A stretch of 38,823 nt of DNA from the sequence record NC_047927.1. One strand, written 5' to 3'. This DNA comes from Escherichia phage YZ1. Shown piece by piece: positions 20,399-38,247 of this stretch (the first letter of the stretch is position 1; every line of letters begins with the position of its first letter). The notes under the pieces are model-generated. The model was not told the DNA's origin and ran no database searches. It worked only from the letters and a program-made list of their open reading frames with translations. The position numbers were made by a program, and so were the translations under genes.

Positions 20399-20421
20399 AC
20401 TAAACTATCACTATAGGGAGA
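20399..20421 (+). promoter_or_regulatory. Phage RNAP promoter upstream of the capsid gene (T7 phi10 position, best consensus match)
   Basis: ACTAAACTATCACTATAGGGAGACC, predicted +1 G at 20416. Confidence 0.85.
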
Positions 20422-20523: not shown

Positions 20524-21567
20524 ATGGCAAACGTTCCGGGTCAGAAAATTGGTACAGACCAAGGTAAAGGCAAATCTGGTTCCGACGCTCTGGCGTTGTT
20601 CCTGAAGGTCTTTGCTGGTGAAGTCCTGACCGCATTCACTCGCCGCTCTGTAACTGCTGACAAGCATATTGTCCGTACCATTCAGAACGGTAAGTCTGCT
20701 CAGTTCCCGGTCATGGGTCGCACCTCTGGTGTGTATCTGGCTCCGGGTGAGCGACTGTCCGATAAGCGTAAAGGTATTAAACATACCGAGAAAGTGATTA
20801 CCATTGATGGTCTGCTGACTGCCGATGTGATGATTTTCGACATTGAAGACGCAATGAACCACTATGACGTGGCTGGCGAGTATTCCAACCAGTTGGGTGA
20901 AGCTCTTGCTATCGCTGCTGATGGTGCGGTGCTGGCTGAAATGGCTATCCTGTGTAACCTACCGGCTGCATCCAACGAGAATATTGCTGGTCTGGGCACT
21001 GCGTCCGTACTTGAAGTAGGCAAGAAAGCTGACCTCAACACCCCGGCTAAACTGGGCGAAGCAATCATCGGTCAACTGACCATTGCTCGTGCGAAGCTGA
21101 CCTCCAACTACGTTCCTGCTGGCGACCGTTACTTCTACACCACGCCGGACAACTACTCTGCAATCCTAGCGGCTCTGATGCCGAACGCTGCTAACTATGC
21201 TGCGCTGATTGACCCAGAGACTGGTAACATCCGTAACGTAATGGGCTTCGTGGTTGTTGAAGTTCCACACTTGACTCAGGGTGGTGCTGGTGAAACTCGT
21301 GGTGACGATGGTATCACTATTGCGACTGGTCAGAAGCACGCCTTCCCAGCTACTGCTGCTGATGATGTTAAAGTTGCTCTGGACAACGTTGTGGGCCTGT
21401 TCTCTCACCGTTCTGCTGTTGGTACTGTTAAGCTGCGCGACTTGGCGCTGGAACGTGACCGTGACGTCGATGCTCAGGGCGACCTGATTGTTGGTAAATA
21501 CGCTATGGGTCACGGTGGTCTGCGTCCTGAAGCAGCTGGCGCACTGGTTTTCAGCCCAGCGGCGTAA
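20524..21567 (+). CDS. Major capsid protein (T7 gene 10A homolog, 347 aa)
   Basis: LALFLKVF, GEVLTAF, GKSAQFPV, DKRKGIKHTEKVITIDGLLTADV, MPNAANYAALIDPE, HRSAVGTVKLRDLALER, KYAMGHGGLRPEAAGA colinear with T7 gp10A. Confidence 0.97.
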   Translation: MANVPGQKIGTDQGKGKSGSDALALFLKVFAGEVLTAFTRRSVTADKHIVRTIQNGKSAQFPVMGRTSGVYLAPGERLSDKRKGIKHTEKVITIDGLLTADVMIFDIEDAMNHYDVAGEYSNQLGEALAIAADGAVLAEMAILCNLPAASNENIAGLGTASVLEVGKKADLNTPAKLGEAIIGQLTIARAKLTSNYVPAGDRYFYTTPDNYSAILAALMPNAANYAALIDPETGNIRNVMGFVVVEVPHLTQGGAGETRGDDGITIATGQKHAFPATAADDVKVALDNVVGLFSHRSAVGTVKLRDLALERDRDVDAQGDLIVGKYAMGHGGLRPEAAGALVFSPAA

Positions 21568-21698
21568 GCACCTTTAGCCAACCTAACGTCGCTACAGTAG
21601 CGGCTGCACCTGAAGAGGAGACTCTAACTCCCCAACAGAAAGCTGCGCGTACTCGTGCTGCGAACAGGGCCGCTAAACTGGCTGAGTCCAACAACTAA
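20524..21698 (+). CDS. Minor capsid protein 10B, predicted product of a -1 ribosomal frameshift at GGTTTTC (21546-21552)
   Basis: The slip heptamer G GUU UUC lies 4 codons before the 10A stop; the -1 frame stays open for 50 codons to TAA at 21696-21698. Confidence 0.55.
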
Positions 21699-21701
21699 TT
21701 G

Positions 21702-21742
21702 AAACCCCTTGGGTGCCTTCGGGTGCTTGAGGGGTTTTTTTT
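21702..21742 (+). terminator. T-phi-like terminator for phage RNAP (also intrinsic-terminator-like)
   Basis: AACCCCTTGGGTGCC-TTCG-GGTGCTTGAGGGG followed by eight T residues; resembles T7 T-phi. Confidence 0.85.
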
Positions 21743-21790: not shown

Positions 21791-22357
21791 ATGGCTCAAT
21801 ACATTCCACTGAATGCTAACGATGACTTAGACGCCATCAACGATATGTTAGCTGCTATCGGTGAACCAGCAGTCCTACAGCTTGACGAGGGGAACGCTGA
21901 CGTCTCGAACGCTCAACGTATACTGCATCGTGTCAATCGTCAGGTCCAAGCTAAAGGCTGGAACTTTAACATCAACGAAGCTGCTGTCCTGACACCTGAT
22001 GTCCAAGACAATAGGATTCGATTCTTGCCGTCATACCTTCGTGTAATGACCGCTGGGGCCACCAGCTACTACAGCAACATGGGTGGATACCTGTACGACC
22101 TGTCCACTCAGTCAACCACTTTCACCGACCCTATCACGGTAGAGCTTGTGGAGATGAAGCCATTCTCCGAGATGCCTGTGGTCTTCAGGGACTACATCGT
22201 CACTAAAGCCAGCCGTGAGTTCAACGCTAAGTTCTTCGGTAGCCCAGAGTCAGAGCTATACCTTCGTGAGCAGGAAGCAGAACTCTATCAGCAGGTTATG
22301 GAGTACGAGATGGACACTGGTCGCTACAACATGATGTCTGACATCGGGAGGGACTAA
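21791..22357 (+). CDS. Tail tubular protein A / gatekeeper (T7 gene 11 homolog, 188 aa)
   Basis: AIGEPAV, NAQRILHRVNRQVQAKGWNFNI, IVTKASREFNAKFFG, EYEMD.G.YNM match T7 gp11. Confidence 0.9.
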   Translation: MAQYIPLNANDDLDAINDMLAAIGEPAVLQLDEGNADVSNAQRILHRVNRQVQAKGWNFNINEAAVLTPDVQDNRIRFLPSYLRVMTAGATSYYSNMGGYLYDLSTQSTTFTDPITVELVEMKPFSEMPVVFRDYIVTKASREFNAKFFGSPESELYLREQEAELYQQVMEYEMDTGRYNMMSDIGRD

Positions 22358-24714
22358 TGCCGCTTATTACGCAAAGCATAAAAAATCTTAAGGGTGGCAT
22401 TAGCCAGCAGCCTGATATACTGAGGTTCTCAGACCAAGGCGAGGCGCAGGTTAACTGCTGGTCATCCGAGAGTGATGGCCTCCAGAAGCGCCCACCTACA
22501 GTCTTCAAGCGACGTCTTAACATCGACGTTGGGAGCAACCCTAAGTTCCACCTGATTAACCGTGACGAGCATGAGCAGTATTACATCGTGTTCAATGGGT
22601 CAAACATTCAGGTAGTTGACTTGAGTGGAAATCAATACTCAGTGTCAGGTGCGGTAGACTACGTTAAGTCCTCCAGCCCACGAGATGACATCCGTGTCGT
22701 TACCGTGGCAGACTATACGTTCGTCGTTAACCGTAAGGTTGTCGTCAAAGGTGGAAGCGAGAAGTCACACTCTGGTTATAACCGCAAAGCACGAGCTTTA
22801 ATTAACCTGCGTGGTGGACAGTATGGTCGAACCCTTAAGGTGGGAATCAACGGTGGCGTTAAGGTCTCGCATAAGCTACCAGCAGGTAATGATGCAGAGA
22901 ATGACCCACCTAAGGTGGACGCTCAAGCCATTGGTGCAGCTCTGAGAGACCTTCTTGTTACTGCCTATCCTTCTTTCACGTTTGACCTTGGGTCTGGCTT
23001 CCTGCTAATCACAGCTCCTTCAGGGACCGATATTAACTCAGTGGAGACGGAGGATGGCTACGCTAACCAGCTAATAAGCCCAGTCCTAGACACTGTGCAG
23101 ACAATCTCTAAACTACCTCTTGCAGCTCCTAATGGGTATATCATTAAGATTCAAGGTGAGACAAACAGTAGCGCCGATGAATACTACGTGATGTATGACT
23201 CCAACACTAAGACGTGGAAGGAGACAGTGGAGCCGGGAGTTGTCACTGGGTTCGATAACACCACAATGCCACACGCTCTGGTACGACAATCTGATGGCTC
23301 CTTTGAGTTCAAGACTCTGGATTGGTCCAAGCGCGGTTCTGGTAACGATGACACAAACCCTATGCCTAGCTTCGTGGATGCTGTGATTAATGATGTGTTC
23401 TTCTACAGGAACAGGCTTGGGTTCTTGTCGGGTGAGAACGTAATCATGAGCCGTTCAGCCAGCTACTTTTCGTTCTTCCCTAAGAGTGTGGCGACACTGA
23501 GCGATGATGACCCTATTGATGTAGCTGTAAGTCACCCTCGAATCTCAATCCTTAAGTATGCCGTTCCGTTTAGTGAGCAGTTACTACTTTGGTCGGATGA
23601 GGTTCAGTTCGTGATGACAAGCTCTGGGGTACTTACCTCGAAGTCTATCCAGCTTGATGTAGGCTCAGAGTTTGCCTTAGGTGATAATGCCAGACCGTTC
23701 GCTGTAGGACGCTCAGTCTTCTTCTCAGCTCCTCGTGGGTCATTCACCAGCATTAAGCGATACTTCGCTGTAGCTGATGTGTCTGATGTGAAGGATGCTG
23801 ATGATACAACCGGTCACGTATTGTCCTACATCCCTAACGGGGTGTTTGATATTCAAGGTACAGGGACTGAGAACTACATCTGCGTCAACTCTACAGGTGC
23901 ATACAACCGTATCTACATCTACAAGTTCTTGTTTAAGGACGGCGTACAGCTTCAAGCCTCTTGGTCACACTGGGAGTTCCCTAAAGATGATAAGATTCTG
24001 GCGTCTGCTTCTATTGGCTCTACCATGTTCATCGTTCGTCAGCACCAAGGAGGGGTAGACATTGAGCACCTTAAGTTCATCAAGGAGGCAACTGACTTCC
24101 CGTCAGAGCCGTATAGACTCCACATTGACTCCAAGGTGTCTATGGTAATTCCAATTGGCTCATATAATGCTGACACCTATAAGACTACGGTTGACATTGG
24201 TGCTGCTTATGGTGGCAACGCTCCGTCTCCCGGTCGGTACTATCTGATTGACAGTCAGGGTGCTTATGTGGACATTGGGGACTTGACCAGTATCTCTACT
24301 GTGATTACCCTCAACGGCGATTGGTCAGGACGCACAGTGTTCATCGGACGGTCCTATCTTATGTCCTACAAGTTCTCACGGTTCCTGATTAAGATTGAAG
24401 ATGATAGTGGAACTCAGTCTGAAGACACTGGTCGCCTACAGCTTCGTCGGGCTTGGGTCAACTACAAGGACACTGGCGCTCTGAGACTCATTGTCAGAAA
24501 CGGTGAGCGGGAGTTCGTGAACACCTTTAATGGGTACACCCTTGGTCAGCAAACCATCGGTACTACAAACATTGGTGACGGGCAGTATCGCTTCGCTATG
24601 AATGGTAACGCATTAACCACTAGTCTAACCTTAGAGTCCGATTATCCTACCCCAGTGTCAATCGTTGGGTGTGGCTGGGAGGCGTCATACGCTAAGAAAG
24701 CTCGTTCCGTCTAA
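22357..24714 (+). CDS. Tail tubular protein B (T7 gene 12 homolog, 785 aa)
   Basis: N-terminal ITQSIKNLKGGISQQPDILR, HLINRDEHEQYY, MPHALVR, FFYRNRLGFLSGEN, LKYAVPFSE, RLQLRRAWVNY and C-terminal IVGCGWE; colinear with T7 gp12. Confidence 0.95.
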   Translation: MPLITQSIKNLKGGISQQPDILRFSDQGEAQVNCWSSESDGLQKRPPTVFKRRLNIDVGSNPKFHLINRDEHEQYYIVFNGSNIQVVDLSGNQYSVSGAVDYVKSSSPRDDIRVVTVADYTFVVNRKVVVKGGSEKSHSGYNRKARALINLRGGQYGRTLKVGINGGVKVSHKLPAGNDAENDPPKVDAQAIGAALRDLLVTAYPSFTFDLGSGFLLITAPSGTDINSVETEDGYANQLISPVLDTVQTISKLPLAAPNGYIIKIQGETNSSADEYYVMYDSNTKTWKETVEPGVVTGFDNTTMPHALVRQSDGSFEFKTLDWSKRGSGNDDTNPMPSFVDAVINDVFFYRNRLGFLSGENVIMSRSASYFSFFPKSVATLSDDDPIDVAVSHPRISILKYAVPFSEQLLLWSDEVQFVMTSSGVLTSKSIQLDVGSEFALGDNARPFAVGRSVFFSAPRGSFTSIKRYFAVADVSDVKDADDTTGHVLSYIPNGVFDIQGTGTENYICVNSTGAYNRIYIYKFLFKDGVQLQASWSHWEFPKDDKILASASIGSTMFIVRQHQGGVDIEHLKFIKEATDFPSEPYRLHIDSKVSMVIPIGSYNADTYKTTVDIGAAYGGNAPSPGRYYLIDSQGAYVDIGDLTSISTVITLNGDWSGRTVFIGRSYLMSYKFSRFLIKIEDDSGTQSEDTGRLQLRRAWVNYKDTGALRLIVRNGEREFVNTFNGYTLGQQTIGTTNIGDGQYRFAMNGNALTTSLTLESDYPTPVSIVGCGWEASYAKKARSV

Positions 24715-24721
24715 CTTATTG

Positions 24722-24771
24722 AAGGGCCTATAGATTTACCTTAACTATCACTATAGGGACTATAGGCCCTT
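24722..24771 (+). promoter_or_regulatory. Perfect 12-bp inverted repeat (AAGGGCCTATAG / CTATAGGCCCTT) enclosing the next phage promoter
   Basis: Arms at 24722-24733 and 24760-24771 are exact reverse complements with a 26-nt loop that contains the promoter core; possible RNase III site or terminator analogous to T7 R13. Confidence 0.5.
24739..24761 (+). promoter_or_regulatory. Phage RNAP promoter (T7 phi13 position)
   Basis: CTTAACTATCACTATAGGGACTA, predicted +1 G at 24756. Confidence 0.75.
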
Positions 24772-38130: not shown

Positions 38131-38224
38131 CTGAATGAATAACTATAGGCGAAAACTGAATTAATACGCAGTTAGTAACCTATAGTTACTACCAGTCTAA
38201 CCTACTGTTTTATAAGGAGTTTGG

Positions 38225-38247
38225 ACTTAACTATCACTATAGGAAGA
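38225..38247 (+). promoter_or_regulatory. Phage RNAP promoter near the right end (T7 phiOR position)
   Basis: ACTTAACTATCACTATAGGAAGAC, predicted +1 G at 38242. Confidence 0.7.

Follow-up and report, generated by a model that had tools for sequence, protein, structure and literature searches.

The -1 programmed ribosomal frameshift that yields the capsid proteins 10A and 10B from gene 10 of T7-family phages has been known in the family since 1983-1991 (Dunn & Studier 1983 and Condron, Atkins & Gesteland 1991, as cited in PMC5009743 and PMC1635266), and in the genus Kayfunavirus since at least 2018. In T7 itself the shift takes place in ~10% of translations in the native context (PMC1635266), and the T7 record annotates 10B as a joined coding sequence (CDS). 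A review describes the G_GU of the T7 slip site as a relaxed X_XX, intermediate between hexanucleotide and heptanucleotide motifs, and notes as unexplained the involvement in gene 10 frameshifting of a terminator CCCC that lies >200 nucleotides (nt) 3' of the site (PMC5009743). Here we analyze the gene 10 locus of Escherichia phage YZ1 (sequence record NC_047927.1), using "the window" for the whole 38,823-nt stretch of DNA, in which an initial annotation had noted a slippery heptamer near the end of the capsid gene, followed by an open -1 frame.

Several relatives of the T7 system have been described. In K1F, gene10 undergoes a -1 translational frameshift described as adding 44 triplets, and gfp fused to the 3' end of the -1 open reading frame (ORF) gave stable fluorescent phage (PMC6277420); the same locus was later used for adhesin display on a subset of capsid subunits (PMC13370021). 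In Kluyvera phage Kvp1, 10B arises from a -1 slip at TTTTCA, as proven by mass spectrometry, peptides unique to the C-terminal region of 10B (residues 327-372) having been sequenced from the larger, 43.6-kDa capsid band (PMC2579914). As predicted for YZ1, the -1 slip of Kvp1, and likewise of Yersinia phage phiA1122, falls on a C-terminal Phe codon of the capsid gene, TTTTC(A); Kvp1 belongs to another genus, and its comparison with YZ1 covers the slip site. Phages T3 and phiYeO3-12 also shift to the -1 frame a few codons before the capsid stop to make a C-terminally extended minor capsid protein, but they do so on C_CCA_AAG, where it is the lysyl transfer RNA (tRNA-Lys) that slips rather than tRNA-Phe, and their extension is an Ig-like Big_2 domain of ~85-90 residues in place of the short basic tail seen here.

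The window represents a K1F-like member of the T7 family, placed in the genus Kayfunavirus (Studiervirinae, Autographiviridae). Over its first 25 kb it aligns with IME177, pO2, vB_EcoP_F and related Kayfunavirus genomes at 93-96% identity and at least 92% query coverage, and the 1.4 kb around the slip site matched 280 phage records, mostly of E. coli and Salmonella phages. The genes of the window lie on the plus strand throughout, as do the features described below unless stated otherwise. The gene that hosts the slip site encodes a major capsid protein of the T7 gp10A family: the zero-frame product of gene 10 (20524-21567, with an ATG at 20524 and a TAA at 21565-21567; 347 residues, 36.3 kDa) matches the Pfam family Gp10A-like (PF21703, E = 9e-106, residues 60-342) and the solved capsid structures 9vvq, 7y23 and, from T7, 2xvr (E = 1e-146 for 2xvr), and is identical to K1F 10A at 338 of 347 residues.

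The 3' end of this gene reads CTG GTT TTC AGC CCA GCG GCG TAA in the zero frame. Direct reading of the sequence thus places the heptamer G_GTT_TTC (21546-21552, zero-frame Val-Phe) four sense codons before the TAA, exactly as the initial annotation had it, and GGTTTTC occurs just once on the plus strand of the window, in frame at this position. The heptamer is not a strict X_XXY_YYZ, since G_GT, in the place of X_XX, is not made of three identical bases. A strict scan of capsid 3' ends therefore misses the site, and a frame-aware analysis of ORFs and motifs was used instead.

The -1 frame is open from 21531 to 21698, past the zero-frame stop and on to a TAA at 21696-21698. No ATG, GTG or TTG lies within this ORF, which is therefore reachable only from the capsid frame. 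Translated in the -1 frame, 21546-21698 gives GFQPSGVSTFSQPNVATVAAAPEEETLTPQQKAARTRAANRAAKLAESNN followed by the stop, or 50 codons counted from GGT. The 50-codon extension that had been claimed is accordingly right as a count of open codons from GGT to the TAA at 21696, but the gain in protein is smaller: in the extension proper (21552-21698), C21552 is re-read and the frame continues CAG ... AAC AAC TAA, adding 48 new residues and a stop and lengthening the product by a net 44. The predicted minor capsid protein 10B, built in silico as join(20524..21552, 21552..21698), has 391 residues and a mass of 40.9 kDa, as against 347 residues and 36.3 kDa for 10A. It is identical to the 10B of Penshu1 at 383 of 391 residues and to that of K1F at 382 of 391, and its length and architecture equal those of the joined CDS in the Penshu1 record, which is annotated as 'minor capsid protein ... 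-1 frameshift' with a reference to T7 10B. Taken from this one sequence, the argument against a chance reading frame is only moderate, with a probability of ~0.08 for 50 open codons from base composition and with at least 50 open -1 codons at 2.2% of the in-gene codon positions of the window. The comparative evidence is decisive against chance.

The closest comparison is with T7. In both phages an identical G_GUU_UUC, in neither case a strict X_XXY_YYZ, lies at the Val-Phe of the ...RPEAAGA(L/V)VF motif, 3-4 codons before the stop, and the same heptamer occupies the homologous position in K1F and Penshu1, so that the conservation asserted in the initial annotation is real. Both -1 tails carry the motif EETLTPxQxAARTRAAN, the tail from the window matches the T7 10B tail in BLASTP at E = 2e-11 (64% identity over 36 columns), and in both phages the -1 stop stands directly before a homologous T-phi terminator with its CCCC. 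The two systems differ in that the capsids, from Teseptimavirus and Kayfunavirus, are ~70% identical; the tail has 48 residues in the window and 56 in T7, and without the ASVTSTE insert and the KEAELAAATAEQ end of T7 it ends in KLAESNN; the slip site is 153 nt from the terminator CCCC, as against >200 nt in T7; and the terminator has a UUCG tetraloop where T7 has a larger loop. Within Kayfunavirus the tail differs by one residue from that of K1F and by none from that of Penshu1, the -1 ORF has the same length in both phages as in the window, and 4 nt differ between K1F and the window from the slip site to the terminator hairpin. K1F is otherwise set apart by strain-level substitutions (nine residues in the 10A portion) and by the short region after the terminator. 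A T3-type capsid frameshift was considered for the window and rejected, as there is no in-frame A_AAG near the stop and no Pfam Big_2 match in the extension, such as is obtained with the extension of relative L040.

To these named genomes (T7, T3, K1F, Penshu1, PRF-SP2 and Pipis) were added larger sets of loci. In a capsid-anchored set of 78 loci encoding capsid relatives of 43-98% identity, 74 were classified by slip motif. A -1 extension of at least 40 codons is present in 28 of the 29 loci with GTT TTY but in 3 of the 33 without a slip motif, and in the clade with an in-frame A_AAG a long extension is found in 10 of 12 loci, as in T3. Slip motif and extension are tightly associated (Fisher p = 7e-13, for loci that are not phylogenetically independent). 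The three exceptions among the motif-less loci are junk frames that read through the terminator; the 33 have a synonymous GTC, GTA or GTG Val codon or a divergent C-terminus, and no real extension.

An independent set of 36 loci was found by searching with the tail peptide alone. Every one of these tails lies directly behind a capsid C-terminus, TTTTC stands at the slip position in 36 of 36 (GGTTTTC in 34, AGTTTTC in one and CGTTTTC in one), and 34 of the 36 are intact. A set of 69 loci came from scanning the fetched loci for NGTTTTC behind the RPEA capsid tail, so that the motif is present by selection; the heptamer is GGTTTTC in 65 of them, CGTTTTC in three and AGTTTTC in one, and a long -1 ORF follows in 65 of 69.

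The -1 frame is under purifying selection and evolves as protein-coding sequence. The ratio of nonsynonymous to synonymous change (pN/pS), pooled over 31 distinct sequences, is 0.47 in the -1 frame versus 1.37 and 1.25 in the other two frames, and the variable columns number 29, 26 and 44 of 46 at the three successive codon positions of the -1 frame. Across 19 distinct DNA versions of the tail core LTPxQ[K/E]AARTRAAN, 12 of the 14 residues are invariant and only x (A or Q) and one K/E vary, despite synonymous codon variation at all 14 positions. Together with the homology to T7 10B and the joined CDS of Penshu1 and T7, this selection supports the longer minor capsid protein that had been predicted from the sequence.

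With a probability that we put at roughly 93%, the site is the Kayfunavirus version of the programmed -1 ribosomal frameshift by which T7-family phages make 10A and 10B. The sequence-level features that define the T7 event are present at the locus, which supports its assignment as an orthologue. Most ribosomes would then read the zero frame through to the TAA and produce the 347-residue 10A, and a minority would slip one base back on G_GUU_UUC. The slip is likely to be tandem, with the A-site tRNA-Phe re-pairing from UUC to UUU and the P-site tRNA-Val from GUU to GGU at two of three positions. Slipped ribosomes would decode 48 further -1 codons to the UAA at 21696-21698, and the resulting 391-residue 10B would join 10A in the head, exposing a basic C-terminal tail that is probably helical. 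By analogy with T7, K1F and Kvp1, we expect 10B to be made and incorporated into virions, at an efficiency of roughly 10% or less, with the distal terminator region as a candidate stimulator.

The T-phi-like intrinsic terminator occupies 21701-21742 and consists of a core stem (21705-21734) with a UUCG loop, beginning with CCCC at 21705-21708, and a run of eight T (21735-21742). Its hairpin, 21701-21738, folds at -25.2 kcal/mol (z = -4.85) and was also recovered by a terminator scan. Since the hairpin starts 3 nt past the TAA at 21696-21698, the extension does end just before the terminator, in agreement with the initial annotation. In 52 of 56 distinct relatives an AACCCC...GGGGTTTTTT hairpin begins 3-12 nt past the -1 stop, whichever extension module precedes it and whatever the tail length (47-98 codons). 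The T-phi-like hairpins of these 52 keep the outer CCCC/GGGG stem and the U-run, and their inner stem and loop vary by clade (GGGUGCC-UUCG-GGUGC, GGGGCCUCUAAACGGGUC, GGGGACCACUCACGGUC). By analogy with T7, the hairpin is a candidate distal frameshift stimulator.

Several observations weigh against a T7-type shift at this site. First, the stretch of 88 nt downstream of the heptamer is no more stably folded than shuffled sequences (z = -0.82) and contains no significant local hairpin. Second, in 15 diverse relatives the pairing of the 40 nt after the heptamer with the terminator, computed with RNAduplex, was not above that of shuffled controls; L102 alone stood out, without a consistent signal. 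Third, GGTTTTC carried on a T7 helper plasmid without its native 3' context shifted <1% of translations (PMC1635266). Finally, T7 10B is reported to be non-essential (PMC5592923), and the 10B tail is broken in three relatives (L007/L091, L118 and L009). That neither a stimulatory structure nor such a pairing was detected fits the situation in T7, whose stimulator is likewise unexplained in the literature.

Two other candidate arrangements were rejected. A minimum free energy fold of 200 nt pairs the heptamer with the end of the tail ORF (z = -2.8), but as a stimulator it would involve bases that are inside the ribosome during the slip. A canonical X_XXY_YYZ with a proximal hairpin or pseudoknot, of the type found in dnaX, insertion sequences or retroviruses, does not fit a site at which G_GT is not strict, the downstream fold is no better than shuffles, no Shine-Dalgarno-like motif is visible in the sequence 8-14 nt upstream of the heptamer, and no Rfam family matched across the whole window.

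The explanation that competes best with tandem slippage is one in which only tRNA-Phe slips on U_UUC, from UUC to UUU, with the upstream G_GU contributing little; the tRNA would slip either while it sits in the P site and the A site is empty, or by itself in the A site, on a hexanucleotide motif. We regard this as possible but unlikely. The protein would be the same, and because the peptide is identical the two mechanisms are inseparable by sequence data. In four relatives whose long extensions are intact, the heptamer is CGTTTTC or AGTTTTC, so that tRNA-Val loses its first-position re-pairing, and the invariant feature of the site is a T at the Val wobble position followed by TTY. The description of the Kvp1 site as TTTTCA, with slippage at poly-U (PMC2579914), and the intermediate standing of G_GU between the two classes of motif (PMC5009743) point the same way. 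Against single-tRNA slippage, G_GTT_TTC is kept in 65 of 69 sites, although this carries little information, as clades that do not shift often have this G too (CTG GTC TTC). The codon after TTC varies (AGC, ACA, AAA, AAC, GCG) and thus does not supply the conserved, slowly decoded A-site codon that a P-site-only model would favor.

The fixed, close spacing of the -1 stop and T-phi could itself be functional, with the hairpin or the transcript 3' end serving as a conserved long-range stimulator or regulator, or the LTPxQ[K/E]AARTRAAN tail could have a specific function in the virion. We consider such a role rather improbable, and genome compaction would account more simply for the spacing. If true, a hairpin acting as a long-range stimulator would explain how a terminator CCCC >200 nt away affects the shift in T7.

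It is very improbable that the -1 ORF is a functionless relic or is open by chance, with any slippage at GGTTTTC amounting to background noise. The single-sequence statistics are only mildly unusual (P ~0.02-0.08), 10B is reported to be dispensable in T7 (PMC5592923), and in some relatives a 1-nt deletion or a nonsense codon disrupts the tail, all of which such a view would accommodate. It is contradicted by purifying selection specific to the -1 frame, by an amino-acid core kept through synonymous change, by the tight association of slip motif and extension, by the conservation of the tail between Teseptimavirus and Kayfunavirus, whose capsids are ~70% identical, and by the display on K1F virions of GFP fused in the -1 frame (PMC6277420).

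Least credible of all is that the longer product comes from RNA polymerase slippage on the T-run or from independent initiation of a small -1-frame gene: slippage on long homopolymer runs is known for T7-type RNA polymerases, and the region would be very highly transcribed from a perfect phi10-like promoter, but the run is of four T only (21548-21551) where ~7 or more identical bases are usually required for productive slippage (reviewed in PMC5009743), and independent initiation is excluded because the -1 ORF has no start codon, nor is any plus-strand ORF listed there. The 10B-specific peptides of Kvp1 also came from a 43.6-kDa band, as expected for a C-terminally extended capsid protein (PMC2579914). 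An antisense ORF at 21551-21694 (47 residues) was likewise set aside, as it mirrors the sense -1 ORF at 21531-21698, whose coding constraint accounts for its conservation.

The frameshift site of these phages is followed by more than one kind of extension. In relatives L008, L011-L021, L024, L025, L068, L072 and L073 (-1 ORF at about positions 2240-2510 of the locus) the capsid is 95-98% identical and a different tail stands behind the same G_GTT_TTC: a domain of 93-98 codons (...TTFKALSTEGPTLE...DVTDWSLL...SRRTNSLYFKA...) replaces the short T7-like tail and has no Pfam match at E <= 0.01. L026, with the same slip site, has a Big_2-like tail instead. Within a single genus, therefore, extension modules are exchanged while the slip site stays in place.

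More distant relatives (L035, L039, L041, L046, L048-L050, L054, L056 and L063, at ~72-77% identity) have no T_TTC and carry instead an in-frame A_AAG, for example in ACA AAG GCT TGA. The motif lies 1-2 codons before the stop and is followed by a Big_2-like -1 ORF of 85-176 codons, an arrangement of the lysyl type known from T3 and phiYeO3-12, whose logic these 10 IMG/VR relatives share. Clades with neither T_TTC nor A_AAG have only junk -1 frames. In L040 and L053 (IMGVR_UViG_3300034349_000001 and 3300034127_000003) no stop interrupts the -1 frame for at least 399 codons after G_GTT_TTT, and it encodes Big_2 (Pfam E = 5e-11) and then ~300 residues with a GDSL-like FEGDSLT motif; in L040 this ORF may run off the end of the locus. 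Judged by its sequence, the extension would be an unusually large frameshift-appended capsid decoration, possibly an enzymatic one.

The three broken tails differ in kind. In L007/L091 a 1-nt deletion (GCGTAAGC to GCGTAGC) means that a -1 slip no longer leads into the conserved tail, in L118 a GAG within the tail has become the nonsense codon TAG, and in L009 the end of the tail is scrambled and the terminator is absent. These are either sequencing errors or natural 10B-null phages, and the latter would agree with the report that T7 does not require 10B.

Upstream of the capsid gene, a phi10-like phage RNA polymerase promoter at 20404-20421 is a perfect match to ACTATCACTATAGGGAGA, the only one among seven promoter-like sites on the plus strand of the window (5169, 16581, 19405, 20404, 24744, 32020 and 38230; pattern ACTATCACTATAGG(G/A)...), where 0.01 would be expected by chance. 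A longer upstream repeat is common to three promoter-like sites (2058-2105, 24711-24758 and 38197-38244). No tRNA genes were found in the window. Between the terminator and gene 11 (ATG at 21791), the segment 21743-21790 holds a ribosome-binding site, GGAGG, followed by ATG AAG ATA... and an 11-codon ORF, MKIRIRYLKGD and a stop. In Penshu1 the same ribosome-binding site, ATG and first three codons open a hypothetical gene of 40 residues; at the same spot K1F has nothing and Pipis has an unrelated transmembrane ORF of 34 residues. The stub resembles what a deletion would leave behind at a site of variable insertions.

Annotation of the two capsid proteins is uneven. In many Kayfunavirus records the 347-residue 10A is labelled 'minor capsid protein' or 'minor capsid protein 10B' and the frameshift product is left unannotated; these include GenBank records of the PRF-SP, STP-SP and CRW-SP series and of Pipis, as well as L002 and L003 (725-1768 in each). 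Among six annotated records inspected, a joined 10B CDS is given in T7, T3 and Penshu1 only, Penshu1 being the only one of the four from Kayfunavirus. The window should accordingly carry a joined CDS for 10B with the coordinates given above.

The value of the site as a discovery is small, since it represents the classic recoding of T7 gene 10 and the version found in the K1F genus has been both published and engineered. For YZ1, the extension at the slip site marks a place for the low-copy display of foreign peptides. For the family, the comparative set brings together several swaps of the extension module that took place independently at a single slip site, along with two alternative slip motifs and naturally broken tails, and it could serve studies of how frameshift-appended capsid decorations evolve or of the unexplained distal stimulator of T7.

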